Source: an uncultured Candidatus Saccharibacteria bacterium
Lineage (GTDB): Bacteria; Patescibacteriota; Minisyncoccia; Phycocordibacterales; UBA5272
Length of the DNA: 64,000 nt
Assembly (NCBI GenBank): GCA_964457775.1
Contig: CAYWEW010000004.1
Span: forward strand, 24,705 to 88,704
Direction: 5' to 3'
Shown here: one piece after another, positions 4,231-40,925 of the stretch
How the letters are laid out: the number at the start of each line of letters is the position of its first letter
Position numbering within the stretch: position 1 is the stretch's first letter
Notes under the pieces: generated by a model
What the model saw: the letters and a program-made list of their open reading frames with translations, nothing else
Databases searched by the model: none
What the model was told of the DNA's origin: nothing
Program-made: the position numbers and the translations under genes

Positions 4231-5067
4231 TTATTTTTGTTTAATAATCTCCTTTACGTATTTCATCATCATACTAAGTGGCGCTTCTTTTCCAGTATAC
4301 AGTGTAAACTGAGCTGCTGCTTGATGGAAAGACATAACATAACCTGGAACAATTATCTTTTTTTCTTTTTTTGCTGTCTGTATTAATTTAGTGTTAAGTG
4401 GTGATACAACTACATCCATTATCACATCATACTTTTTTATATCATCTTTATTAATAACCATCTCATTAATATTTGGTGACATTCCAACTGGTGTAGCGTT
4501 AATAAAAATATTAGCTTTTATTTCTTTTGTTTTATTATTTGGACAGTATGTAATATTAAACTCACTAGAAACTTTTTTAGATTTTTTGTCATCACGTGAG
4601 GACAAAATTATTTCTTTACAACCTTCTTTTTTAAGAGCTACGATTGCTGCTCTTGCCGCTCCACCTGCTCCAACAATATGAGCAGTTTTTCCTTTTGCTT
4701 TATATACACTGATCAGTGCTTTTTGCACACCTATAACGTCAGTATTGTAACCAGTTAAGATACCATCATTATTAACTACGGTGTTTATTGCCCCTATCTC
4801 TTTTGCAACCACATCAACTTTGTCTAAATATTTACCTATAACAGTTTTATGAGGCATAGATACACCACAACCTTTTATATGAAGAACTCTAACTGCGTCA
4901 ACTGCTTTCGATAAGTCTTTTGGCATTACCTGAAATGGTTTATATATATAATCCATCGACAATGACTTGAACACCTTGTTAAAAATAAGACTACCGAAGT
5001 TACCCGGAGCAATTGCAATAGAAATACAACATGTTGTGTCTTTTGTGATTTTAATATTTTTTTTCAT
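4231..5067 (-). CDS. shikimate/quinate dehydrogenase family oxidoreductase (AroE-like)
   Basis: SMPHK, GAINTV, GYNTD, GAGGAARA and NATPVGM motifs. Confidence 0.7.
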   Translation of the reverse strand: MKKNIKITKDTTCCISIAIAPGNFGSLIFNKVFKSLSMDYIYKPFQVMPKDLSKAVDAVRVLHIKGCGVSMPHKTVIGKYLDKVDVVAKEIGAINTVVNNDGILTGYNTDVIGVQKALISVYKAKGKTAHIVGAGGAARAAIVALKKEGCKEIILSSRDDKKSKKVSSEFNITYCPNNKTKEIKANIFINATPVGMSPNINEMVINKDDIKKYDVIMDVVVSPLNTKLIQTAKKEKKIIVPGYVMSFHQAAAQFTLYTGKEAPLSMMMKYVKEIIKQK

Positions 5068-5072
5068 AATTT

Positions 5073-5576
5073 TTATAGTATATTTTTAATATTCTCGGGT
5101 AATTCAAAAAACTTTTCCATTATATGTAAACATGCTTCCCCTACCGCCCCTTCCCCCGCATTTGTTTGAGTAACATAGTCCGCATGTTTGCGGGCAAGAT
5201 AAAAGGCGCTTGCTGGTGCAATACTATATCTTATGTGATTAAAAATAATAGCATCATGTATACCATCCCCCATATATATAGATTCTTCTAAATCAAAATT
5301 TTCCTGCAACCAAGAAAGCCTACTCGCTTCACTAACTAGTGTTAAATTTAACCCCATGTCTTCTGCTACTCTTTTTCTACTTATATCGAAACCTCTTTTG
5401 TCGGCAGATATAGCACAAACATTTATAAACTTACTGAGCATTTTTATTCCATCATTATCATGTGGGCCAAAAACTTTAGCTAATTTACCATCCTTAGTGT
5501 ACAAAAACTGTCCTGTTGTTAACACCCCATCAACATCCAAAATTAAGTTTTTTATACTTTTTTGTGAAATATTCAT
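5073..5576 (-). CDS. KdsC-family HAD phosphatase (3-deoxy-sugar-phosphate phosphatase-like)
   Basis: LILDVDGVLTTG motif I and GDGIHDA motif. First gene of the minus-strand operon. Confidence 0.7.
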   Translation of the reverse strand: MNISQKSIKNLILDVDGVLTTGQFLYTKDGKLAKVFGPHDNDGIKMLSKFINVCAISADKRGFDISRKRVAEDMGLNLTLVSEASRLSWLQENFDLEESIYMGDGIHDAIIFNHIRYSIAPASAFYLARKHADYVTQTNAGEGAVGEACLHIMEKFFELPENIKNIL

Positions 5577-5634
5577 TAAGTGATTATAGTCTATAAAACT
5601 AAACTTTGCAAAAATATTACAACAAATAAATAAT

Positions 5635-19901: not shown

Positions 19902-20158
19902 TTATGCAACTTCTGTTTCTTGAACTTTTTTATTGGGACAATTTTTCTCGAGTGCAATGAGAATCAATTTCCTCAACTCTTCACGACGAACGAATAGGTT
20001 CTTTGAAAGCCCGAGACTAACTCCCGTCCTCGGGTCTTTTTTGTCCGCCAAACCAGCGTCAAGGAAAAGAAATTGCGTGAACACTTCTCTTGCATTCAAT
20101 TCGTTCACAGGAAGACTGAAATTTGGGCGGTGAAAACGGAGCAACTCTCTCGAACTCA
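19902..20158 (-). CDS. hypothetical small protein (85 aa) in the GC-rich island
   Basis: AGGGGA Shine-Dalgarno 7 nt before the ATG at 20158. The longer listed ORF start is unlikely. Confidence 0.4.
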
Positions 20159-20242
20159 TTTGTATTCCCCTTTTTAAGAACATACAGCCGAGACGGCCGA
20201 AACTATACACTACCATTTTTCTCAAAAATTGCAAACAGTATA

Positions 20243-20296
20243 AAAATAAAAAGACCCCCATCTCGCATGACATTGTCATTTGATTTGGGGGTCTGA
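20243..20296 (-). terminator. Rho-independent terminator of the SPFH gene
   Basis: AGACCCCCA...TGGGGGTCT stem with a nested ATGACAaTGTCAT palindrome, followed by TTTTATTTTT on the minus strand. Confidence 0.55.
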
Positions 20297-20311
20297 CCAA
20301 TTACGGTCTTG

Positions 20312-21256
20312 TTATGCAGCCTTCAGGCCAGCAGTCTTGCCGGCCTCGCTCGTCGTCGCCTTTACAGCTGCGACAGTGTTGATCAAGTCACCGGCTGAAC
20401 GTGTGTCGACGATGACCATGTTGCCGTGAGCAGCCGCATTCGAAATGGTATCCAGACGATTGGTCTCGTTTAGGAACTGCATCGCTTCTTGCGAAGTGAG
20501 TCCAGCTTTTGTCATCGTTTCCATCGCTTGCTCGAGACCCCTGGCCATTGCTTCACGCATCTTAGCCATACCTTCACCTTGAAGTCGCTTGCTTTCCGAC
20601 TCTGCTTCTGCAACACCAACGAGTTTGATACGCGCAGCTTCTGCTTCGTTCACAGCCGCTTCTTTGAACCTCTTTGAAGCGATGACGCGGTTGAATGCGT
20701 CACGTACATCGTCGCTCGGCTGCGGTTGGTCAACAAGAACATTCTCGATGATATAGCCATAGCGTTCAAACTGCGTACTCAGAGCCTCTTTCACCTGCCC
20801 TTCCAGCAACTCGCGATTGACGTAAAGTTCCACCATGTCCATACCCGACGCCGTCTGACGAACGTTGTTGAGTACGTATGAAGTGATCTGCACTTCTGGT
20901 TTCTCGAGTTCGTAATGTGCCTTAACGGCACCCACCGAATCATCGCTCGCACGATACTGCACCTTAACGGGAAGTGTCATGAAGGCGTCGTCCTTGGTCT
21001 TGACACTTACATTGGTCTTTGTTTCTTGTTGTTGCAAGTTGACGAAATGTCTAACCGATGTTATCGGCCAAGGCATCTTGAACTGTAGACCAGGCAAACG
21101 TGCACGTGCGTGCGGTTTCCCGAAGGTCTCGAGGATACCTGCCGTCTTTCCACGAACGATGAAGATCGAGGTGAAAATAAGCCAGAACGTAACGAGAACC
21201 ATGACCATTTTCCACGAGAAGATGAAACCGACGATGTTGCTTAGGATGATTTCCAT
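20312..21256 (-). CDS. SPFH/band-7 domain protein (stomatin/HflC-like)
   Basis: N-terminal TM segment, then ...DAFNRVIASKRFKEAAVNEAEAARIKLVGVAEAE. RBS-supported ATG at 21256. Confidence 0.75.
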   Translation of the reverse strand: MEIILSNIVGFIFSWKMVMVLVTFWLIFTSIFIVRGKTAGILETFGKPHARARLPGLQFKMPWPITSVRHFVNLQQQETKTNVSVKTKDDAFMTLPVKVQYRASDDSVGAVKAHYELEKPEVQITSYVLNNVRQTASGMDMVELYVNRELLEGQVKEALSTQFERYGYIIENVLVDQPQPSDDVRDAFNRVIASKRFKEAAVNEAEAARIKLVGVAEAESESKRLQGEGMAKMREAMARGLEQAMETMTKAGLTSQEAMQFLNETNRLDTISNAAAHGNMVIVDTRSAGDLINTVAAVKATTSEAGKTAGLKAA

Positions 21257-21306
21257 TGATTGAACTCCTGTAGTGGTTGACAAAAAACATCTATATAAAC
21301 AGATGT

Positions 21307-21335
21307 ACTATATCATGATTATAATATTTTGTCAA
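21307..21335 (-). promoter_or_regulatory. sigma70-like promoter of the SPFH gene
   Basis: On the minus strand: TTGACA, 17-nt spacer, TATAGT, then GGAG RBS and ATG. Confidence 0.4.
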
Positions 21336-21352
21336 GCAAATTTTATCCGAAT

Positions 21353-22561
21353 TTACTGAGCTTTAAGAGCGGTCTGGGTGTATTTATTCGAAGGATCCCA
21401 CAGCATCCAGGATTTTATTCCTAAACGTTCACCGGCGCTAATTTGAGCTCTAACCATTTCCGCAGTATAAACCCCTCCCATATCAAAATCTTGATACCAT
21501 GGGCGATATTTTGCCCTTATAGTAGATGTTGACTGTCCTGTACTACTTGCCACTTCATCAGCAATTTCAATACCTAATTTCATGGAATAAGTAATGATTT
21601 CTCCTGGGTGTTGGGCTGGTTTTTGATAGCCTGCTGTTCCTGGATAAAAGTGTGAGGGATATATCATTGGAGCAACATAATCAAAAGTTTGAAGAGCGGC
21701 ATGCATATCTTGTCCAAGCACAGCAATGTCCACTTTTGTAACCATAATAATTCCGAACAAATCCCCTGACACAGGAATACCATCTTTTCTTAATGAGTCA
21801 GTAATATAATGATAAAAATCAGAAATTATAGCAGGCTTGTTTACATGTACCCCTCCTTTACCACTAATTGGAAATGACATGTCAGCTAATGCTCCATCGG
21901 TAGGGAATCTTATGTAGTCCAAATTAACTTCATCAAATCCTCGTGCGTAACTTTCTTTAGAAAGATCTTCAATGTATCTCCACATCTTTCTTGAGCCAGA
22001 GTCTACCCATGGTATGCCTTTATGATCCTTCCAAACTCCTCCCGTTTTTTTTGATAATACTGCTTCTTCTGGATGAAGTTTCACATAAAGCGGATCTTGA
22101 AAGGCAGACACGCGCGCAATAACATAAATATTTTTACTATGAAGCTCATCGATAAATTCGTTTATGTCTCGTGCTCGACCATCCCATGTAATTACTCCAG
22201 TATTATCTTTGACATCAATAACAACTGCGTTTAATTCAGTATCTTCAATCAGCTTCACAAGACGTGAGCGAATAGATGGACTACCAGCAACCCAACTCGA
22301 CATATATACCGCCTTCACATGCTCTGGTGTTTTGATATGAGTAACAATTCTTGGTGTTGTTGTTGCATTAACACTCTTTGAATTATTTTCTTTTTTTGAA
22401 ACACTACCAACAATACTAGAAGAGGTTGTAGCCTTTTCTTCTGCAAGAACATATTCCTCTGTTCCAAAATTCTTTACTATGGAAACATGTTGATACCCAC
22501 TATACATTATCCAAAAAAAAACTAAACTAACTAATGTTATAAACGCCCCGATTATTTTCAT
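21353..22561 (-). CDS. membrane-anchored putative glycoside hydrolase (GHL/DUF4015-type TIM barrel)
   Basis: N-terminal TM anchor. FDEVNLDYIRFP motif typical of GHL families. Confidence 0.5.
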   Translation of the reverse strand: MKIIGAFITLVSLVFFWIMYSGYQHVSIVKNFGTEEYVLAEEKATTSSSIVGSVSKKENNSKSVNATTTPRIVTHIKTPEHVKAVYMSSWVAGSPSIRSRLVKLIEDTELNAVVIDVKDNTGVITWDGRARDINEFIDELHSKNIYVIARVSAFQDPLYVKLHPEEAVLSKKTGGVWKDHKGIPWVDSGSRKMWRYIEDLSKESYARGFDEVNLDYIRFPTDGALADMSFPISGKGGVHVNKPAIISDFYHYITDSLRKDGIPVSGDLFGIIMVTKVDIAVLGQDMHAALQTFDYVAPMIYPSHFYPGTAGYQKPAQHPGEIITYSMKLGIEIADEVASSTGQSTSTIRAKYRPWYQDFDMGGVYTAEMVRAQISAGERLGIKSWMLWDPSNKYTQTALKAQ

Positions 22562-24656: not shown

Positions 24657-24743
24657 TTCACTTCCCCTTTATTTCAAAAGAACAACAAAATCAATATAGA
24701 TTTGGAAGTTTATATATTAGCACAAATAACAATACGTACAAAT

Positions 24744-27573: not shown

Positions 27574-27598
27574 TTTTACTTCTTTGCTATTACTCCTG
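27574..27598. repeat. 25-nt direct repeat DR1 (copy of the rpsL 3' end)
   Basis: ttttacttctttgctattactcctg matches ttttacttctttgctactgctcctg at 30841-30865 at 23 of 25 positions. Confidence 0.6.
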
Positions 27599-29377
27599 TA
27601 ATGTTGAATACTTCGGACGATTAAGAGTGGTTATAAAATCTTTAACGTCAGCACTGAAGGCTTGTTTTGTTGTTTCACTTGCGTCCAAAAAATACACAAA
27701 TTCTGTCTCTTTTGTCGGAGTATCGAATTCACTCACGAATTTTTCGACAATAGCATTCGGGGTAACAATTGTTCTTCCAGAAATAATCGCCTTCGGGAAA
27801 GTTACTCCGCCATTTTTACTTGTCTTAAAATATGCATCATATACAAGTTCGGAACAATATATTTCATTTTTTGTGTCCAAATCAAATGCATAATCATAAG
27901 GCTGACCATAATGTCCAAAAGCAGTTATTAATGCTTCCAGTTTTTCTTGTTTTGTTAATCTTGTTCTTGTGACCGCAACATAATCCACTGAAGCAGAACT
28001 TTCAACTGACTGAATTAGTGTCCCGTGTGTTTGGCTTTCTACAACCGAAGGAGAAAATCCTTTTTCATCCTTTTCACTCAAAACTTTATAAGCTTTTGGA
28101 TTTTCTGATTGTAGTAACATACTCATAGAAGAATATCCTCGATATGGGAAAACTTCTTCGAAGAAATTATCCATATCTTCTAAACTTCCAGTGTACATAC
28201 CTGCATGTGTCCAAAATCCTGGAATACCCAAGTTACTTGCATACCAATTCTTACGATAGACCATAATATCTCCAGGCTCCATTAACTTTTTCATCTCCTC
28301 GATTTGTTCTATTGTAATAAACTTCGAGGTTCTGTCACCAACATGTATATTACCTATCTTGTCTGTAATTACTGTCTTTTGAATTGGAAGCCACGTCTCA
28401 AATGCTTTTCTATCAAATAAGTTTTTATATACGACACTTCTGTGTGTAATTTGAGAAAATGCATTCTTAAAAATGTAATCATAACTTGTGCGAGAAACCT
28501 CAAGAAGTGACGCGTAGTTTGGTGAAACATATGTACTGTCTTCTGGTACTTTCAACTGATAATAAAGATAACCCAAGTTTCTTCTAAGGAAAGAATTTGA
28601 TGCGAAGAATCTAGCAGTAACATCATCATACAAAAAACCAGCACCTAAAGTGTCACTATATTCATTGAAAATTTTTATAGCAACAGGATTTTCACTAGCC
28701 TTCGAAATCACTTTATGGAAAATTTCAAATTTCTTAATATACAGTGAATAAGCAATGATAAATGACTGTGTGTGAGTTTCTTTGTTGTTAAACATAGAGA
28801 TTTGGTGGAAATACCTATGTCTATCTGTCATTTCTTCGGTCTCTATCGACGCAACAAGAAAAGACTCCCAATCACGCTTAAGTGACAATCCTTCTTCATA
28901 AGAAAGTTCGTTTTTTAAAATACCAGGATTCATTAAAAGCTTTTCTCCTGAAAGAATTAACTTGTCCAAAAGAACGGCAGCAACTTCAACATCTTCTTGT
29001 ACAATTTCTATTTGTTGTTCAGTTGTAAGTGGAGAAAAAACTTCCTTTTCATTTGGTATAACACTAGAAACCACATACCAAATAACAACAATAAATATTA
29101 GTACGGAGATAGCAATCTTGTGTCCTTTGGTAATTTTCTTTGTTGTATTAATGTATTTTTGTAAACTTTTACTAGTCCCATAATTAACAAAAATATTTTT
29201 AATTTTACGATAAACCACGTACAAAATCCCTAATGATATTACAACATGAAGAGGATCGAGTAGTTTTGTTACATAAGCAAATAGTGCAACTATAAGTAAC
29301 AAGACAATCGATATAATATTTATTAATAAACTAAACACACCTACAGATTGCTTGTTACTAGTATTTTTTTGTTTCAT
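27590..29377 (-). CDS. membrane-anchored protein with C-terminal YiiX/DUF830-like permuted papain-fold hydrolase domain
   Basis: N-terminal TM helices. C-terminal PGDIMVYRKN...FWTHAGMY...GQPYDYAFDLDTKNEIYCSELVYDAY (His and Cys motifs). Confidence 0.5.
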   Translation of the reverse strand: MKQKNTSNKQSVGVFSLLINIISIVLLLIVALFAYVTKLLDPLHVVISLGILYVVYRKIKNIFVNYGTSKSLQKYINTTKKITKGHKIAISVLIFIVVIWYVVSSVIPNEKEVFSPLTTEQQIEIVQEDVEVAAVLLDKLILSGEKLLMNPGILKNELSYEEGLSLKRDWESFLVASIETEEMTDRHRYFHQISMFNNKETHTQSFIIAYSLYIKKFEIFHKVISKASENPVAIKIFNEYSDTLGAGFLYDDVTARFFASNSFLRRNLGYLYYQLKVPEDSTYVSPNYASLLEVSRTSYDYIFKNAFSQITHRSVVYKNLFDRKAFETWLPIQKTVITDKIGNIHVGDRTSKFITIEQIEEMKKLMEPGDIMVYRKNWYASNLGIPGFWTHAGMYTGSLEDMDNFFEEVFPYRGYSSMSMLLQSENPKAYKVLSEKDEKGFSPSVVESQTHGTLIQSVESSASVDYVAVTRTRLTKQEKLEALITAFGHYGQPYDYAFDLDTKNEIYCSELVYDAYFKTSKNGGVTFPKAIISGRTIVTPNAIVEKFVSEFDTPTKETEFVYFLDASETTKQAFSADVKDFITTLNRPKYSTLQE

Positions 29378-29445: not shown

Positions 29446-30351
29446 CTATTCCTTAAGATTCATAACTACCATCGCATGATCACTTCCAATAATTTCTTCA
29501 TCTAATGGTATATTGCTGTAACATTTTAAATCTTGATTAAGTACCGATACATTATCTATTAAATTAGATATTTCCTTAGATACAACCATGGTGTCAAATG
29601 TAAGTGGATTATTATCATGTATATGCGTCGTTAGATTCCCTTTATAACCGATTAGGACATCTAGTAACACCTTACTCTCTTCATTGCTTGCTTTCAGGAT
29701 ATCAAAACCACTACTATTATTATGTTCATTAAAATCACCGAGTAAAATAATTTCCCTCTTTTCATCGAGAGTCTTATCTGCAAAGGCTCTCAGCCCTCTC
29801 ATCTCCATTAATTTATAAAAAATACACCTAAACTTCGCATCTGTATATATTTGTTGACTAGAATTATAATCTTGTCCTTCCAAAAACATTGGCAGAAAGC
29901 TCTTTAAGTGGAAAGTGACTATTCTTAATTTTTTGCCACGATAACTATCTATATCAATTACAAGAATATCTCTTCTTTGTTTTATAGGTAATAAGTTATT
30001 TGTATCACCAATCTCTTGAATACTTGGTATAAATAAATCACCCAAAGAAACACTTTTGCAAGTAATATTTTGGGTTAGTGATTTTTTATACATAACAGCC
30101 ATACGAATTCCACGACTATTTGGCTTTGCAAAAAAACAATTATACCCAAGTTCTTCACTGATTATTGATACACCTTTTTCTCCTCCAACTTCTTGAAGAC
30201 ATATAATATCTAAGTCTTCTTTTTTAAATATTTCCTTAAAATAAGTAATTCGCTTGTTAAAAAACTCTTCATGGACCACATCTTCTGCCTCATCATCAAT
30301 TCGTGTCCCTGCATCATAAAAGTTCCTAAGATTATACGTCGCTATCTTCAT
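29446..30351 (-). CDS. endonuclease/exonuclease/phosphatase (EEP) family protein
   Basis: ATYNLRN, ICLQEV, LLGDFN and GSDHAMV motifs. Confidence 0.7.
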   Translation of the reverse strand: MKIATYNLRNFYDAGTRIDDEAEDVVHEEFFNKRITYFKEIFKKEDLDIICLQEVGGEKGVSIISEELGYNCFFAKPNSRGIRMAVMYKKSLTQNITCKSVSLGDLFIPSIQEIGDTNNLLPIKQRRDILVIDIDSYRGKKLRIVTFHLKSFLPMFLEGQDYNSSQQIYTDAKFRCIFYKLMEMRGLRAFADKTLDEKREIILLGDFNEHNNSSGFDILKASNEESKVLLDVLIGYKGNLTTHIHDNNPLTFDTMVVSKEISNLIDNVSVLNQDLKCYSNIPLDEEIIGSDHAMVVMNLKE

Positions 30352-32833: not shown

Positions 32834-32868
32834 CAAAAAACGCGACCTGAGTCGCGTTTAATTATTTT
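32834..32868 (+). terminator. Rho-independent terminator of rpmB
   Basis: AACGCGAC-ctga-GTCGCGTT followed by taattatttt. Confidence 0.55.
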
Positions 32869-33212
32869 AACCTTTTAACTGAAGGTACGGTCATATCATG
32901 AATCTTTAAACCAAGACCAGTAAGACCGACGAAAGCCATCATTTGCATCAGAGGGTGTCCTACCAAATTATGCATCGCCCAGACATGCCTCTGCCATTTA
33001 ATAGATGGCAAACCCTCTACTGCGCTCGGTTTAAACAAAAGAGTTATTTCTAGAGCATCTATTCCTTCTGCCAAATATACACCCCCTTCCTTTGTTGTAA
33101 TCTGTATCTCAAGAACATCTAAATCTTTATAATCTATACCCACAACAGAGTCTGTAGATATTACGACTGCGCCTGTTTTAATGAAACGAGGATAGATCTT
33201 AGGAAATAGCAT
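32862..33212 (-). CDS. hypothetical protein (117 aa)
   Basis: Start trimmed to MLFPKIY. 14-nt overlap with the upstream gene. Confidence 0.35.
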   Translation of the reverse strand: MLFPKIYPRFIKTGAVVISTDSVVGIDYKDLDVLEIQITTKEGGVYLAEGIDALEITLLFKPSAVEGLPSIKWQRHVWAMHNLVGHPLMQMMAFVGLTGLGLKIHDMTVPSVKRLK

Positions 33213-34443
33213 AGCCACCACTCTTCTCCATGAGATTAAAATTACGTTCAATAAAATCAATAACTCGAAATGATGGAACCCGTCTATTGTAAACAATATT
33301 CGGACCATGATTATCCAAATACACCGCAAAGATTCCTGGCTCTATTTCACGAATACCTCGAGACGTATTTGCTCCGCACTCATGACTCCCACATTCAAAC
33401 TCTCTTTGAGAAACAATAGGGACGAGAGAGTCTGTTTTTATTGTGCTATGAAAATGAACAATACAATCCAGATCAGCATGCTCGTTAAAAATAATTCGCT
33501 GTGACTGACCGCCCACCGATGGCTTCGCACCATGGGCAATCACTTGTCGATCATCAACAGAATCAATTTTAACTAGGCCAATATTAGCAAGGTCATTAAA
33601 GTTTCTTTTTCTTGGAGAGGTCAGGAATTCACCTTCTTTAACCTTAACAGCAAAGTGTCCGGCTGTTACTCCACGAAAAGTCTTATATGCTCCTTGATCT
33701 ATACAGTAATCAACAACCTCTCTAAGAGAATCCGGAACGTAAGGGGACCGCCATGGCGTCATCACATCATCAACAACAACACTTTTTGTAAAAGTGAGCT
33801 CTGACCGATGCAAGACCATATCAACCAAATTACGCAGAACGTGTTCTCTATCTTTACTTTCGTGATACACAGCTTCTTCTGGTGCGACAATCATATTCGT
33901 CCTTGTCACAACATCATTTGCCAAAACAAGGTTCACACTTGAGGCTTTCAACATATTAAGAGCCTGCTTATATGATTCCTCACTTGTAGCATTACATGTC
34001 GTCTTAAAACCAACAAGAAAAATATCTTTTCTAGCATTTGCGCCTGCACGAACACTGCTGATGATTTTTTGTGCCGGAAAAAGTAACATGCTATCTATTC
34101 CGTCTGAGGTCTTCAAACGTGGAGCATACTTGCCACCCTCGACCCCATCAACAGTCCCAACAAAATCAGTAAGCGCGATATTCATAAAGATAATCTTAGT
34201 TGCCTTATCGTTACAAATATCCCTCACCAACCCAGCAACGTCATCATTTGTAACCAAACTGCTTGAACTATCAGCCATCTTGGTTAAATGAAGACGCACT
34301 TCGTACTTGTCTTTGTCAAAGACTTCTTCACAAAGCTTTGCGATCTGCCTTGCAGTGTTACCGAATGCTGGTGCAGACAACGCAAGGTGACTACGAACAT
34401 GATTGAATGTTCCACCTCCCAAAACATGTATTATTGATTTCAT
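33199..34443 (-). CDS. fusion protein: CoaB-like (DFP-family ligase fold) N-terminal domain plus class II aldolase/adducin C-terminal domain
   Basis: N-terminal VLGGGTFNHVRSHLALSAPAFGNTARQIA, KIIFMNIALTDF and FLVGFKTT...LVLANDVV resemble CoaB. C-terminal KPSVGGQSQRIIFNEHADLDCIVHFHS is an aldolase_II signature. Confidence 0.5.
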   Translation of the reverse strand: MKSIIHVLGGGTFNHVRSHLALSAPAFGNTARQIAKLCEEVFDKDKYEVRLHLTKMADSSSSLVTNDDVAGLVRDICNDKATKIIFMNIALTDFVGTVDGVEGGKYAPRLKTSDGIDSMLLFPAQKIISSVRAGANARKDIFLVGFKTTCNATSEESYKQALNMLKASSVNLVLANDVVTRTNMIVAPEEAVYHESKDREHVLRNLVDMVLHRSELTFTKSVVVDDVMTPWRSPYVPDSLREVVDYCIDQGAYKTFRGVTAGHFAVKVKEGEFLTSPRKRNFNDLANIGLVKIDSVDDRQVIAHGAKPSVGGQSQRIIFNEHADLDCIVHFHSTIKTDSLVPIVSQREFECGSHECGANTSRGIREIEPGIFAVYLDNHGPNIVYNRRVPSFRVIDFIERNFNLMEKSGGYAIS

Positions 34444-34551
34444 GATAGATCCTTTGGTTAGGTTTGATAAAAAGAACTGCTGTTCCTTTTACAGAATACA
34501 GTGGGTTGTGTTTTAAGACAATGTGTGTTTATAATAATATATAAACATACT

Positions 34552-35322
34552 ATGACTCGCCTAGCAAAATTACTTCTTGATATAGGATTAACAGACACAG
34601 AGACTGCTGTCTTTGACCATCTCTATCACAATGGTAAAAATACTGCTTCTACAATTAGCCTCACTCTATCTAAAAATAGAGCAACAATATACCATGCACT
34701 ACACTCATTGAAAACAAAAGGTCTTCTATGTGTAGAAAATGAAAATGGCACTAATCATTTCAGTGTTCCAAATAAAGAAATTTTTTCATCATACTTTGAG
34801 CACAAGGAAGAGATGATACATAAGCACAAAAAAGAAGTTGAGGAATACATGTCCAAAAAAAAGCCTCTGATTAAAAAATCCGAGGAAACCACAGAATTCT
34901 ACACTGGGGACGAAGGTATTCGCATGGCATTAGAAAAAGCCTTTCGCTGTAAAACAAAAAGGTGGGATATCATTGCTCCCAGAAACAATTTTTTTACTAG
35001 TGCAAACGAAGAATTTGCTGATTACTATATGCACAGTAGAAAAAAATACAAAATACTTTCACGTAGTTTATGGGAAAAGACAAAAAACGAACCACTTCTA
35101 GTAACAAAAATATTACAAGAAGAAAGAAACCCTAGATATTTGGACGAAAAGGCAAGTAATACTTTTAGTTCAATCCTTATACTTTATGATGACTCTGCTT
35201 TATGCATTTCTTCACACAAAGAGCGTACCGCAATAATAATCCAGTCTGAAAGTATGCACAGCATTCTGAAAATGCAATTTAATTTACTCTACGATAGTGC
35301 AATCAGGCCAGAAATAAAATGA
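34552..35322 (+). CDS. TrmB-family transcriptional regulator
   Basis: LGLTDTETAVFDHLYHNGKNTASTISL..IYHALHSLKTKGLL wHTH. Confidence 0.65.
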   Translation: MTRLAKLLLDIGLTDTETAVFDHLYHNGKNTASTISLTLSKNRATIYHALHSLKTKGLLCVENENGTNHFSVPNKEIFSSYFEHKEEMIHKHKKEVEEYMSKKKPLIKKSEETTEFYTGDEGIRMALEKAFRCKTKRWDIIAPRNNFFTSANEEFADYYMHSRKKYKILSRSLWEKTKNEPLLVTKILQEERNPRYLDEKASNTFSSILILYDDSALCISSHKERTAIIIQSESMHSILKMQFNLLYDSAIRPEIK

Positions 35323-37152: not shown

Positions 37153-37199
37153 ATTTCACATGTTAGGATATGATTATAGTTCATTCACAGGAGAAAATA

Positions 37200-37355
37200 A
37201 TGAAAAAAAGCAGGGGTAGAAAAGGAAGGGTAGTTAAACCTGTGTCGCGTATCCCTGAAACATACAGGGATCCTTTGACAGGTGTATATGCTTTCCCAGC
37301 AAGTTTCGGAGAAAGTTTTGCCGAGAGAATCAGGATACGTTTCGCAAAAAAGTAA
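37200..37355 (+). CDS. cassette 2: small basic protein (51 aa)
   Basis: AGGAG RBS and ATG at 37200. Same upstream element and terminator as its neighbours. Confidence 0.35.
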   Translation: MKKSRGRKGRVVKPVSRIPETYRDPLTGVYAFPASFGESFAERIRIRFAKK

Positions 37356-37440: not shown

Positions 37441-37692
37441 ATGAAAAATGTCCTAAGAGGAGGAGCTCCTTTTACTCTTCCGCAAATTCGAAAACAGCTA
37501 GGCATGAGTCAGGATGGCCTTGCTACTTTGCTTGAGGTGTCAACTGATACTATTCAAGCATGGGAGAATGGTAGAAAAAAACCAAGTAGCACATCAAGGT
37601 TACTCCTTGAGATGCTTGCGGCAGATCAAAAAAACACAATCCGTTTGATAAAAAAATCTGCTGGATTTTTCTTCCAACCAAACCCAAAATAA
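37441..37692 (+). CDS. cassette 3: HTH XRE-family protein (HigA/MqsA-like antitoxin-type C-terminus)
   Basis: LPQIRKQLGMSQDGLATLLEVSTDTIQAWENGRKKPS helix-turn-helix. Confidence 0.65.
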   Translation: MKNVLRGGAPFTLPQIRKQLGMSQDGLATLLEVSTDTIQAWENGRKKPSSTSRLLLEMLAADQKNTIRLIKKSAGFFFQPNPK

Positions 37693-37770: not shown

Positions 37771-38697
37771 CTATTTGTCTGTCTTAACCTCCATCATCCT
37801 ACCGTCAGTCACAAAAGAAATACTTCCTCTGTCTATTGTGCTTATAATTTCTTTTGTGTATTTTTGTAATCTGTCAATCGTCTCTACATTCGGATGTCCG
37901 TACTTATTATTTTTTCCTGCACTCACGACTGTGTACTCGGGTTTGATGTAACTTAGCAACTGCTCTCCACTTGATGTCTTACTTCCATGATGCCCTACTT
38001 TGTACACTGTCACATTTTTTGGAAGCGCACCACTATCGAATAATTTATTTTCTTTTGCTGTTGGTAAGTCTCCAGTTAACAAAAAACTTTGTTCTCCGTA
38101 TGTGATGACCATACTCACTGATGCATCATTCGTATCATTTTTCTTTTCTTGATAATTTTTTTGTGGGTACAAAATTTGTGCAGTTACTCCATCATGAAAA
38201 TCAATCACATCTCCTGTACGTGCGACATACATATCTGCATGTTCGACATCGATATGTTTATCTAACTCACCAAAAACTTTTGTGTCACTATGTACTGGTG
38301 ATTCTATAATTGTATGTGCTTTATATTTTTCTAAAACTGGAATTAATCCAGTCACATGATCTGCATCCGGATGAGTTGCGACTATCACATCTATCTCACG
38401 ATCAAAGTATGACATTTCAGAATCTAGTCTAGATAAAATTATATTCGTCGGACCACCATCTATAAGCATTTGTTTTCCACTTGGAGTTTGTACAAAAATT
38501 GCATCACCTTGTCCAACATCGAGAAAAGAAACTTTGAGTTTTTGTGGTGTGATTAATTTGTATATCACAATTGCTGATATCAAAATAATAAATAATGAAA
38601 TGAAAACAAAAGTAACTTTTCCATAATTATGAATAAAATCTTTTGTGCTTTTTCTCACATTTTCTCTCCACTCATTCATATGATAATAGTAACACAA
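37771..38697 (-). CDS. ComEC C-terminal metallo-beta-lactamase domain protein (split comEC, part 2)
   Basis: FLDVGQGDAIFVQTPSGKQMLIDGG..., HPDADHVTGL. Confidence 0.6.
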   Translation of the reverse strand: MCYYYHMNEWRENVRKSTKDFIHNYGKVTFVFISLFIILISAIVIYKLITPQKLKVSFLDVGQGDAIFVQTPSGKQMLIDGGPTNIILSRLDSEMSYFDREIDVIVATHPDADHVTGLIPVLEKYKAHTIIESPVHSDTKVFGELDKHIDVEHADMYVARTGDVIDFHDGVTAQILYPQKNYQEKKNDTNDASVSMVITYGEQSFLLTGDLPTAKENKLFDSGALPKNVTVYKVGHHGSKTSSGEQLLSYIKPEYTVVSAGKNNKYGHPNVETIDRLQKYTKEIISTIDRGSISFVTDGRMMEVKTDK

Positions 38698-38785: not shown

Positions 38786-39358
38786 ATGATCGACTTACAC
38801 ATAATAATTTCCTCCTGGTCATACCTAGCCATCTTTATATTAATGTTCACCAACGGTGTCGGGAATTTTCCTTCTTCGCAATTCCTTTATCTTATTTGTG
38901 GTTACTTCATTAGTACAGGTAACTTACTTTTTGTCCCAACTATTCTTGTAGGAACGATAGGCAACGCCTTGGGAAATATCACAACTTTTTTTCTCATAAA
39001 AAAATACGGCGAATCCTTTGCTCGAAAGTTGTTTATGCTTGATGAGGAAAAATTTAGAAAAATTTACTCGGCTCTTCACAGCACTTTTCAAGATAAAGGT
39101 TTGTGGTGGTTATTCTTAGGAAAATTAACTCCTTCGATAAAAGCCTTCGTTCCTATGGTCGCTGGTTTAGCAAATACTGAGAGTAAAATTACCTCTTTGA
39201 TATTTTTTGTAGGATCTCTCCTTTGGGCAATTATGGTTACTTCGATTGGTTATTTCTTCGGTGAACACATCTCACTCACCTCTCTCACGGCCGTTTCACT
39301 GACTGTAGGTTCTATCATTATCTTTATTGTTTATAAGAAAGTTTACAAAAACCTATAA
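38786..39358 (+). CDS. DedA/TVP38 family membrane protein
   Basis: Multi-TM protein. DedA-type re-entrant loop region (FPSSQFLYLICGYF). Confidence 0.55.
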   Translation: MIDLHIIISSWSYLAIFILMFTNGVGNFPSSQFLYLICGYFISTGNLLFVPTILVGTIGNALGNITTFFLIKKYGESFARKLFMLDEEKFRKIYSALHSTFQDKGLWWLFLGKLTPSIKAFVPMVAGLANTESKITSLIFFVGSLLWAIMVTSIGYFFGEHISLTSLTAVSLTVGSIIIFIVYKKVYKNL

Positions 39359-39368
39359 CAAAATTCTT

Positions 39369-40925
39369 TCAGTAGGAAATTATGTCGGTGAGATTTCCAT
39401 TCTCTCTTGTTGCACGCGTTTCATTATTATATTTTCTTAAAATTAATATCATTAGAATAGAAACGAAAAGATAAATAAAACACATCGTTTTAAATGAAAC
39501 GTTAAGCATAACTGTCGAGTAAGGAAATAATTCTATTGTTCTTGCTACCCATATCATGACCCCAATTAGTACTGAATCTATGTATCCAATAAGTAGTGAT
39601 AATGTGTGTGAAATGTATGAAAAAAATACAACCAAGAATGAGAACAACATCGCAATTGGTACAAATGGAACGACAAGCACATTCGCTATGAGGGCGTACA
39701 CTGACACTGTCCCGAAGGTGTACATAACATAAGGCAATGTCGCGAAGTAGGCAGACAAGGTAGTAATGAAGAGTTCTCTTAAAGAGAGTGGCGACACGTA
39801 AGAGAAATATTTTTGAAATAACAATGTAAGTGGTTCACTCATATACACCAATCCAACCGTTGCGAGAAACGAGAGATGAAGTGATACATCGTGCATGAGC
39901 GCATATGGTTCATACATCACAATTATAAATAACGAAATTATCAAAGCTTGCTTCGCTACATATTGACGACCGACCAACATTGCGAGTAACGCGATGAACG
40001 CCATCAGAGTTGCACGTATAACACTCGGACTACCCCCTACCATAATTACAAAAAGTACTACTGAAATTGAAGCGAACACAATACGCAAAGTAAGTGGAAG
40101 AAACGCGAGTGCAAACAAAATAGAAGCAATTACAATTACTATATTGAAACCAGAAAGAACCACAATGTGAGATAGTCCTGCAGAACGAAATGTCTGAGTT
40201 AATTCTTTGGACATTGATGATGCTCCGAACAACATCCCGCTTGCAAGTGATGACGCGGGTGATGAAACATAAGTATCAATTCTTGTAGTTAAATTTTCTT
40301 TCAGACGACCCAACACATCTCTTATAGCATGAGCCTCACTATCAATCCCCTCCACACGGGGGTACATCATTTCACTTCCAATATTTTTGGTCAGTAAGTA
40401 TGAAGCGTAATCAAATCCTTTTTCTTTGATCTCGTTATGAGAATAAATAATTTTTGGAACAGTAACTTTTCCAGAAAGTTTGAGCGTCTCGCCTATTTCA
40501 TATTTTGGATAAAGCGGTGTGCGAACTTCTACCGCAAGTGCTTCAACATCTTTGACAATCGGCTCTACTGAAAAAATTTGATACTCATTTTTTGTCTCTG
40601 GTGATGTAACAATTACAGCATTGAATGTACAACTACTCTCACATACAAAATTATTTTTCTCCTCAACTAATTGTACACGGATGATTCCGATAAATAGTCC
40701 GAGACAAAAAAGTGAAGTGACGAGCGGAAAAGGAAAATGATGAAGGATGTCGAAGATGTCCTTCATCATTTTTCTTTTCCGCTCCCAACCATACAACCCC
40801 AACTGTATCACCCCGAGCACCACTGCTAGCACCCCCACCTCACTTCCATACACAGACATCTCTCCAATCACAATTCCTAACAATGCTCCGACTACGAATA
40901 TAACTGTCTTTGCATGTGTTGTCAT
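39369..40925 (-). CDS. ComEC/Rec2 N-terminal membrane 'Competence' domain protein (split comEC, part 1)
   Basis: SVIRATLMAFIALLAMLVGR...LHLSFLATVGL competence-domain signature. Confidence 0.6.
   Translation of the reverse strand: MTTHAKTVIFVVGALLGIVIGEMSVYGSEVGVLAVVLGVIQLGLYGWERKRKMMKDIFDILHHFPFPLVTSLFCLGLFIGIIRVQLVEEKNNFVCESSCTFNAVIVTSPETKNEYQIFSVEPIVKDVEALAVEVRTPLYPKYEIGETLKLSGKVTVPKIIYSHNEIKEKGFDYASYLLTKNIGSEMMYPRVEGIDSEAHAIRDVLGRLKENLTTRIDTYVSSPASSLASGMLFGASSMSKELTQTFRSAGLSHIVVLSGFNIVIVIASILFALAFLPLTLRIVFASISVVLFVIMVGGSPSVIRATLMAFIALLAMLVGRQYVAKQALIISLFIIVMYEPYALMHDVSLHLSFLATVGLVYMSEPLTLLFQKYFSYVSPLSLRELFITTLSAYFATLPYVMYTFGTVSVYALIANVLVVPFVPIAMLFSFLVVFFSYISHTLSLLIGYIDSVLIGVMIWVARTIELFPYSTVMLNVSFKTMCFIYLFVSILMILILRKYNNETRATRENGNLTDIISY

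Follow-up and report, generated by a model that had tools for sequence, protein, structure and literature searches.

Pairs of a kinase and an enzyme of the class II aldolase fold are a common pattern in metabolism. In a second pattern, ArgC-family enzymes reduce activated acyl groups by way of a thioester, and the canonical enzyme upstream of them is a carboxylate-activating kinase. A third point of reference is CoaB: the Arg of its VR-x-I-(S/T)-N motif is critical for the second half-reaction, the Asn of the motif lies in the active site, and roles have been assigned to a cation-coordinating Asp (Msm D281) and to residues of the flap (PMC7794376). Here we analyze a protein that joins a CoaB-like domain to a class II aldolase fold. 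It is encoded on the minus strand, at positions 33199–34443 of a 64,000-nucleotide stretch (hereafter the window) that spans positions 24,705–88,704 of contig CAYWEW010000004.1 (assembly GCA_964457775.1) from an uncultured Candidatus Saccharibacteria bacterium. The protein is a genuine two-domain enzyme of an uncharacterized family, and the folds of both domains are known. Full-text literature searches returned no description of the fusion, of the 116-residue partner protein encoded next to it, or of a related gene pair in which the N-terminal domain stands alone beside an ArgC-type reductase; as far as these searches show, all three are apparently undescribed.

Results

The protein is a fusion of two known folds

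The open reading frame begins with ATG and encodes 414 residues. Its coordinates, strand and length are exactly those given by the initial annotation, which had read the gene as a CoaB-like ligase domain fused to a class II aldolase/adducin domain. The open reading frame listing, Pfam and AlphaFold2 all support this assignment. Pfam places Aldolase_II at residues 255–334 with 33.9 bits (gathering cut-off 22.2); DFP, the CoaB domain, is found at residues 72–185, where it passes marginally (22.8 bits, cut-off 22). The AlphaFold2 model of the full-length protein, built on an alignment of 67 homologs, has a predicted local distance difference test score (pLDDT) of 94.9 and a predicted template-modeling score of 0.91. 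The N-terminal domain (N-domain) covers approximately residues 1–213 (33805–34443, minus strand) and the C-terminal domain (C-domain) approximately residues 214–414 (33202–33804, minus strand).

We asked whether the fusion could have arisen in assembly. The search returned 3,423 homologs, the best 120 of which are all full-length with 53–92% identity, and the identical protein is present on five independent contigs. With thousands of homologs, full-length best matches and independent identical copies, an assembly artefact is ruled out.

The N-domain has a CoaB fold but lacks the residues for amine addition

When the N-terminal half was compared with the PDB using Foldseek, the top 50 matches were all CoaB/PPCS structures (2gk4, 6thc, 1u7z and 7edz among them), with a probability of 1.0, E-values of 7e-12 to 9e-7 and target TM-scores of about 0.7. 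A profile of the fusion family matches 2gk4 with E = 1e-7 in HMMER and a probability of 97.7% in hhalign, both in the same register, and the sequence motifs from which a CoaB likeness had first been proposed align with CoaB by both methods. The predicted structure thus belongs to the CoaB/PPCS fold and not to a different Rossmann family.

The conserved elements of the N-domain are the G10-G11-T12 loop, H19, L53-T-K-M-A57, D93, the K105/R109 flap, K126, R138-K139, F146-K147-T149 and N176-D177; the G10-G11-T12 loop and D93 are invariant in the fusion family. In the alignment, D93 corresponds to the cation Asp of CoaB (D279/D281, the latter in Msm) and R109 to the flap Lys of 2gk4, the K-x-K-K flap being reduced to K105-x-x-x-R109. 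At the Arg and Asn positions of the VR-x-I-(S/T)-N motif (R206/N210 in E. coli, R207/N211 in Msm), HMMER and hhalign agree in placing Leu20 and Ala24, both of which are conserved across the family. We take E. coli N210 to have a specific role in the cysteine-adding step, which was reportedly described by Kupke in 2002 and Stanitzek in 2004. Because the Arg/Asn pair for amine addition is absent, the N-domain is better read as a carboxylate activator than as a phosphopantothenoylcysteine synthetase. The NCBIfam equivalogs for CoaB and CoaBC (TIGR00521, TIGR02114 and NF005231) score 21–24 bits against cut-offs of 217–265.

The core N-domain residues of the fusions are also invariant in stand-alone N-domain proteins, indicating that they serve a function of the domain itself. 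Two features are confined to the fusions, namely the P188-E-E190 hairpin and Y193. The GGT loop and further N-domain motifs have disappeared from about a dozen representatives and from a Paraburkholderia homolog, with the PEE hairpin and all C-domain motifs retained. The C-domain is thus the constant core of the family, to which part of the N-domain probably lends structural support.

A stand-alone N-domain is coupled to an ArgC-type reductase

Stand-alone N-domain proteins are approximately 200–270 residues long and include members from cultured Caulobacter and Pseudomonas phages (phrog_35624). In 5 of the 15 loci that carry only the N-domain, its gene shares 4–8 nucleotides with the beginning of a gene for a reductase of about 290 residues. 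These five loci come from Variovorax (on a megaplasmid), Burkholderia ubonensis, a Paraburkholderia sp., Novimethylophilus kurashikiensis and one viral contig; the pairs, whose CoaB-like member has about 200–217 residues, lie at L177:8995–10567, L178:6001–7493, L179:6001–7481, L180:6001–7514 and L183, approximately 4971–5609 (L numbers denote the loci compared in this study). The coupled reductases are full-length ArgC-type paralogs (TIGR01851, E = 1e-46 to 1e-77). Most score below the ArgC equivalog cut-off, and they keep the catalytic Cys in NPGC(Y/F/I)AT and the His in HRH(L/V)PEI. PGAP names the two members 'phosphopantothenoylcysteine decarboxylase' and 'argC'. At L179, a gene for an M23 peptidase lies 3' of the pair.

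The gene order bears on the function of the N-domain. An acyl-activating enzyme is what an ArgC-type reductase needs upstream, and here a CoaB-fold protein without the amine-addition residues occupies that slot, which supports the reading of the N-domain as a carboxylate activator. Judged from gene order and conserved residues, these observations suggest that the CoaB-like/ArgC-type pair is an undescribed two-gene module that activates and then reduces its substrate. No ArgC-like gene is found in the 169 fusion loci, and no gene for the 116-residue partner in the N-only loci. It thus appears that one activation step feeds either the aldolase-fold domain or the reductase.

The C-domain is a divergent class II aldolase fold

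A model of residues 215–414 alone reaches a pLDDT of 91. Its Foldseek matches are FucA (4c25), HMPDdc (2z7b), YgbL (6vop), DrdA (6btg), AraD (1k0w) and POD (8iqa), with E-values of 4e-6 to 1e-4 and TM-scores of 0.5–0.6; the Fe oxygenases NovR and TqaM were also matched. Structure prediction, Pfam and the fold comparison thus bear out the class II aldolase assignment, and the motif on which that assignment first rested aligns with AraD and YgbL.

The conserved elements are G262-H263-F-A, S276/R278, P308-S-V-G-G-Q-S-Q-R316, H330-F-H332, E350-C-G-S-H-E-C356 and H379-G-P-N382. H330-F-H332 and H379 align with the HxH and HG metal motifs of 6vop and AraD; the corresponding metal ligands of FucA are, in the numbering we assume, H92, H94 and H155. 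In a set of 327 homologs chosen by the presence of HGPN, PS[VA]G is retained in 323, EC[GA]S..C in 322, GH[FM][AG] in 316, [IV][VIA]H[FAM]H in 310 and PSVGG in 289. Of the phosphate pocket, the Pro-Ser (P308-S309) is conserved and, as we read the alignment, S276/R278 fall in the segment of Thr43/Gly44 of FucA.

Three features set the active site apart. First, in the alignment to 1k0w, Gly311 of the near-invariant PSVGGQSQR segment occupies the position of the carboxylate that serves as fourth ligand and general base (Asp76 in AraD, Glu73 in FucA). A small divergent subgroup reads PSVGEHTQ, with a Glu one residue beyond the missing ligand. Second, the invariant His263 presumably stands at the position of FucA Asn29, as we read the alignment. 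Third, a near-invariant loop, E350-C351-G-S-x-x-C356, has been added in the region of the acceptor pocket; His354 within it is replaceable. In two homologs (P0042 and P0224), Cys-rich, zinc-ribbon-like insertions are present just before the SQREYECGSH loop, at the position of window-protein residues ~336–345, suggesting that this surface of the C-domain tolerates or uses an extra metal-binding module.

A sequence search with the fusion-family profile gave no solved aldolase at E ≤ 0.1. This places the C-domain on a remote branch of the superfamily, too far out for its chemistry to be read by homology. The NCBIfam aldolase-II equivalogs score far below their cut-offs: OtnC is the best with 22 bits against 250, followed by MtnB with 15 against 137, and FucA and AraD reach 12–14 bits against cut-offs of about 260. 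Stand-alone forms of the C-domain were also considered; the two representatives inspected begin at contig edges and so may be fragments.

The gene forms a unit with a small partner gene and faces a TrmB-like regulator

Downstream of the fusion gene, a 116-residue partner protein is encoded at 32862–33212 (minus strand). Its ATG overlaps the stop of the fusion gene by 14 nucleotides, and the same gene is called on L169–L171. Three nucleotides past the partner stop, at 32838–32859, is a hairpin resembling a bidirectional intrinsic terminator, with a 9-bp stem containing five GC pairs and T-tracts on both strands. From this arrangement, the fusion gene and its partner are predicted to be a translationally coupled two-gene unit closed by the terminator. 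The GC content of the fusion gene is 0.408 and that of the partner gene 0.387, compared with 0.34 for the neighboring regulator gene and a window mean of 0.355; the raised values fit either acquisition from elsewhere or a strong amino-acid constraint.

The partner family is His-rich and has the motif KPSxxEG...W..HN..xHP..Q...HD.T.P. Apart from phrog_36447, the partner has no match in Pfam, PDB sequences or PADLOC, and a homolog search gave hypothetical proteins only. In 20 of 110 dereplicated loci it is encoded on the strand of the fusion gene, no more than 1.5 kb downstream. The linkage follows the phylogeny of the fusion protein: the partner occurs anywhere in the locus in 21 of 34 loci of clade A, which includes the window, Sphingomonas and a locus in a flagellar cluster, versus 2 of 74 loci of clade B. 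At a threshold of 80%, no clade-specific residues of the fusion protein mark an interface with the partner. Phage CcrPW encodes a partner homolog (hhalign probability 96.7%) immediately behind a 396-residue HD-domain protein resembling PDB entry 2gz4 (gp064–gp065, L175:2625–4168). We considered gp064 as a relative of the fusion protein and ruled this out, given its HD domain.

On the other side of the fusion gene, a divergent gene on the plus strand (34552–35322) encodes a TrmB-family regulator of 256 residues according to the gene callers, also on L169–L171; the longest reading frame starts with GTG at 34501 and has 273 codons. The regulator, noted in the initial annotation, is real: Pfam TrmB matches with E = 5.2e-9 and the NCBIfam TrmB model covers residues 20–171. 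A TrmB-like gene lies near the fusion gene in ten dereplicated loci, at position −1 or −2 in nine and +2 in one. Across 12 TrmB-linked loci it is the sole recurrent neighbor, apart from a family of about 183–205 residues in four closely related loci. The consistent adjacency of this divergent gene in cellular loci suggests that expression is controlled by a ligand.

The intergenic region between the two genes (34444–34551) is AT-rich and 108 bp long. It contains a Shine-Dalgarno-like AAGGA 7 nucleotides upstream of the ATG of the fusion gene, a weak promoter-like match on the minus strand (34470–34442) and an imperfect inverted repeat (34516–34533/34540–34557). The promoter and inverted-repeat signals are not above chance; the promoter scan gave 5 sites where 5.8 are expected.

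The family circulates among huge phages and Patescibacteria-type bacteria

IMG/VR contains at least 153 viral contigs with the full-length fusion gene, many of them 200–580 kb long, and the 595-kb huge phage LR756511.1 also has it. Loci from cellular assemblies are often phage-like as well, with a terminase (L007), HNH, NUDIX and Tad6 genes (L006) or homing endonucleases (L001), and the Paraburkholderia fusion locus (L172) carries TK, DNMK and RNase H genes. The closest named homologs are from Kaiserbacteria and Vogelbacteria; the gene is also found in Sphingomonas sp. 3-13AW and in the flagellar cluster of an alphaproteobacterial metagenome-assembled genome (MAG). Identity is 50–57% across phages, Patescibacteria-type genomes and Proteobacteria, and an exhaustive search yields just 533 clusters at 50% identity, indicating that the family is compact and highly conserved. 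Its circulation is mainly among huge phages, with established copies in Patescibacteria-type chromosomes and a few Proteobacteria. The surroundings of the gene in the window are of the Patescibacteria type, with a GC content of about 0.35 and genes for rpsL, an L28-like protein, an M50 peptidase, a split ComEC and DedA.

Individual loci show further neighbors. In the alphaproteobacterial MAG (L002:7607–19387), the order is FlgI, a rod-binding protein, an FlgN-like protein, the fusion gene, M23, the partner gene, FliK, FlgD, FlgE, a sulfotransferase/TPR gene and flagellin. At L006:7677–9302, on a 1.36-Mb contig labeled Armatimonadetes, a Pfam Tad6 gene ends 19 nucleotides before the fusion homolog, with HNH and NUDIX genes nearby. 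In six dereplicated loci (for example L120, 894–1163), the gene directly upstream of the fusion encodes an 89-residue His-rich membrane protein (HHHDHE, HNHNHE), which may be a metal-handling protein.

In viral loci, the recurrent neighbors are ARH, NADAR, PARP-like, Macro, RNA ligase, Thg1, CYTH and HD_4 genes. We considered and set aside a functional link to NAD/ADP-ribose or RNA repair, because no single family exceeds 12% of the viral loci and the offsets vary; such genes are judged to be ordinary content of huge-phage accessory islands. A known defence system was likewise considered, and PADLOC-DB gives no match for the fusion protein, the partner or the phage stand-alone N-domain proteins.

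Other features of the window

ComEC is apparently split in the window: a metallo-beta-lactamase gene lies at 37771–38697 and a Competence/DUF4131 gene at 39369–40925, both on the minus strand, with a DedA/VTT-domain gene (38786–39358) between them on the opposite strand. A 61-residue basic protein (37170–37355, plus strand) is followed by an 83-residue HTH_3/MqsA-like protein (37441–37692, plus strand); the two may be a small toxin-antitoxin pair. At 27590–29377 (minus strand), a 595-residue protein combines hydrophobic segments at its N-terminus, as read from the translation, with a C92 permuted-papain amidase domain; its gene adjoins an endonuclease/exonuclease/phosphatase-family gene (29446–30351, minus strand). 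Finally, the interval 20001–22000 has a GC content of 0.448 versus about 0.33 on either side and covers open reading frames at 20312–21283 and 21353–22561 (minus strand).

Discussion

We propose, with a probability of roughly 0.4, that the fusion protein couples a nucleoside triphosphate (NTP)-dependent acyl activation to metal-dependent chemistry of the enolate type, using a phosphate or nucleotide as the handle. In the first step, to which the conserved residues and the gene association point, the N-domain would bind NTP-Mg through the GGT loop, Asp93 and the Lys105/Arg109 flap, and the NTP would activate a carboxylate as an acyl-nucleotide, as in the first half-reaction of CoaB. In the second step, which we put forward more tentatively, the activated acyl group, or a nucleotidylated or phosphorylated substrate, would pass to the fused aldolase-fold domain. 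There, a metal-stabilized enolate-type reaction at H330/H332/H379 might form or cleave a C–C bond, decarboxylate or isomerize. A Cys thioester could be involved, by analogy with ArgC. The TrmB-like regulator of the two-gene unit would sense a sugar-type ligand.

Several observations weigh against this proposal. Ten of the 15 N-only loci, including most phage stand-alone genes, have no ArgC-like neighbor. The members with a degenerate N-domain keep every C-domain motif, indicating that the C-domain can work without N-domain catalysis. The CcrPW homolog of the partner follows an unrelated HD-domain protein, which argues that the partner is an accessory of metal-dependent enzymes generally and is not specific to the chemistry of the fusion. 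In addition, the literature gives no substrate, product or activity for any member of the fusion family.

A more specific version is a long shot: the protein might perform an NTP-driven, Claisen-type C–C formation, new to both folds, in which the acyl group of an acyl-nucleotide made by the N-domain is captured, possibly as a thioester on Cys351 or Cys356, and joined in the C-domain to a metal-bound enolate. The product would be a small phosphorylated metabolite needed by huge phages and ultra-small symbionts, in the phages for take-over or counter-defence. The partner would then be an accessory subunit shared with HD enzymes.

The main rival, which partly overlaps with our proposal, is that the C-domain is the sole catalyst. 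It would be an aldolase, epimerase, dehydratase or isomerase acting on a sugar- or nucleoside-derived phosphate in a TrmB-induced salvage pathway, with the N-domain as a nucleotide-binding regulator or oligomerization scaffold. This reading draws on the same N-degenerate variants, with their PEE hairpin and complete C-domain motifs, on the conserved His triad and phosphate-pocket Pro-Ser, on the dedicated regulator in cellular loci, and on the frequency of kinase/class II aldolase-fold pairs such as FucK/FucA, MtnK/MtnB and OtnK/OtnC. We nevertheless consider it unlikely. The NTP residues of the N-domain are constrained in most members as they are in the stand-alone, ArgC-coupled proteins; the Glu/Asp base of canonical aldolases and epimerases is replaced by Gly311; and neither a sugar kinase, nor an isomerase, nor a transporter recurs in the 138 dereplicated neighborhoods.

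The abundance of the gene on viral contigs, many of them from huge phages, raises the question whether it serves in conflict. In such a scenario, the enzyme would make or destroy a nucleotide-derived molecule, for instance in NAD/ADP-ribose metabolism or RNA repair, as a phage counter-defence or take-over function, and the Patescibacteria copy would have been domesticated. Stand-alone N-domain genes are found among the small early genes of Caulobacter and Pseudomonas phages, the NAD- and RNA-related neighbors do recur, and the GC content of the fusion gene (0.41) exceeds that of the window. The homolog 19 nucleotides after the Tad6 gene points the same way, as Tad6 is a Thoeris anti-defence protein (bioRxiv 10.64898/2026.01.28.702374). 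Against this scenario, the NAD-related genes together make up an estimated 1.7% of neighbor genes, approximately what is usual for huge-phage islands, and each neighbor family stays within the 12% noted above. There is no PADLOC match, the cellular copies sit among housekeeping genes under a dedicated regulator, and an identity of 50–57% between groups is atypical of fast-evolving counter-defence proteins. We regard the scenario as improbable.

A still slimmer chance is that the C-domain, instead of being a Zn/Mn lyase, belongs with the aldolase-fold non-haem Fe(II) oxygenases that have a three-His site, of the POD, NovR/CloR or TqaM type. The missing carboxylate ligand (Gly311) would suit such an enzyme, and POD, NovR and TqaM are matched with TM-scores similar to those of aldolases; however, FucA, HMPDdc and YgbL rank first in Foldseek, the PSVGEHTQ subgroup has a Glu beside the position of the missing ligand, and many carriers are of the Patescibacteria type, which are generally anaerobic fermenters.

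Least probable by far is an alternative CoA pathway, advanced in the initial annotation as a CoaB–CoaC-like pair of ligation and non-flavin decarboxylation, in which the N-domain would genuinely ligate cysteine to phosphopantothenate and the flavin enzyme CoaC would give way to the aldolase-fold domain as decarboxylase: the CoaB fold, the weak CoaB/CoaBC profile matches, the metal-dependent decarboxylases of the superfamily (OtnC, the best NCBIfam match, and the fold matches YgbL and HMPDdc) and the database records that call some homologs 'phosphopantothenoylcysteine decarboxylase' are outweighed by the Leu/Ala replacement of the Arg/Asn pair that CoaB needs in its second half-reaction, equivalog scores of about 23 bits, the mainly phage-borne distribution, the N-degenerate members and the pairing of the stand-alone N-domain with ArgC-like reductases and not with CoA genes. 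No CoA gene is among the annotated recurrent neighbors in the 138 dereplicated loci, and, as weaker evidence, a search confined to the 64-kb window with approximate query sequences gave nothing significant for CoaD or CoaE. Moreover, decarboxylation of phosphopantothenoylcysteine requires thiol oxidation and so differs from the beta-keto-acid decarboxylation of aldolase-fold enzymes. The protein is almost certainly not part of CoA synthesis. The fallback offered alongside this idea, a different ligase-lyase chemistry, is compatible with the evidence and close to our proposal.

The fusion family is among the more strongly conserved families common to huge phages and Patescibacteria-type bacteria. 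Solving its reaction would give a function to a gene that recurs in thousands of metagenomic sequences and on no fewer than 153 IMG/VR contigs, and would reveal a role of the CoaB fold outside CoA; the ArgC-coupled relatives suggest a new way to activate carboxylates for reduction. It would also add an active site with three His and two Cys to the chemistry known for the class II aldolase fold, and it would correct names that recur in databases. Metabolic reconstructions of Patescibacteria and phages will probably be led astray by 'phosphopantothenoylcysteine decarboxylase', 'class II aldolase' and 'argC'. The family is open to experiment through cultured carriers: Sphingomonas sp. 3-13AW, Paraburkholderia aspalathi, strains of Variovorax and Burkholderia, and the Caulobacter and Pseudomonas phages.

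Comparison with known systems

The N-domain shares with CoaB/PPCS (PF04127; 1u7z, the C-terminal domain of E. coli Dfp; 2gk4 from S. pneumoniae; 6th2 from M. smegmatis, Msm) the fold, the GGT phosphate loop, the cation Asp, a basic flap residue and the FK and (A)ND motifs. The nearest type is the monofunctional streptococcal CoaB, a likeness that extends to the TTKRA motif of CoaB, which reads LTKMA in the N-domain. It differs from CoaB in having Leu20/Ala24 for Arg/Asn, a reduced flap and a new invariant His19, and it is never seen beside CoaC; instead, it is fused to the aldolase fold, paired with an ArgC-like reductase or, in phages, found by itself.

With the class II aldolase/adducin superfamily (PF00596: FucA, AraD, RhaD, MtnB, DrdA, OtnC/YgbL and HMPDdc; also POD and NovR), the C-domain has in common the fold, the HxH...H triad and the Pro-Ser of the phosphate pocket. 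In contrast to these enzymes, it has Gly311 for Glu/Asp, His263 for Asn29, the E-C-G-S-x-x-C loop and the CoaB-like fusion. The combination of modules resembles, by analogy only, FucK/FucA, MtnK/MtnA/MtnB, OtnK/OtnC and DrdK/DrdI/DrdA, where an NTP-consuming step installs a phosphate-type handle for the aldolase-fold site. Here, however, the activating module is of the CoaB fold and fused, and no isomerase or kinase recurs nearby.

The stand-alone N-domain sits where ArgB does in ArgB–ArgC (and its counterparts in LysZ–LysY and Ask–Asd), translationally coupled to a reductase with intact Cys and His. The activator differs in that it has the CoaB fold, with its acyl-nucleotide chemistry, and not the amino-acid-kinase fold. 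In the window protein, the aldolase-fold domain stands in place of the reductase.

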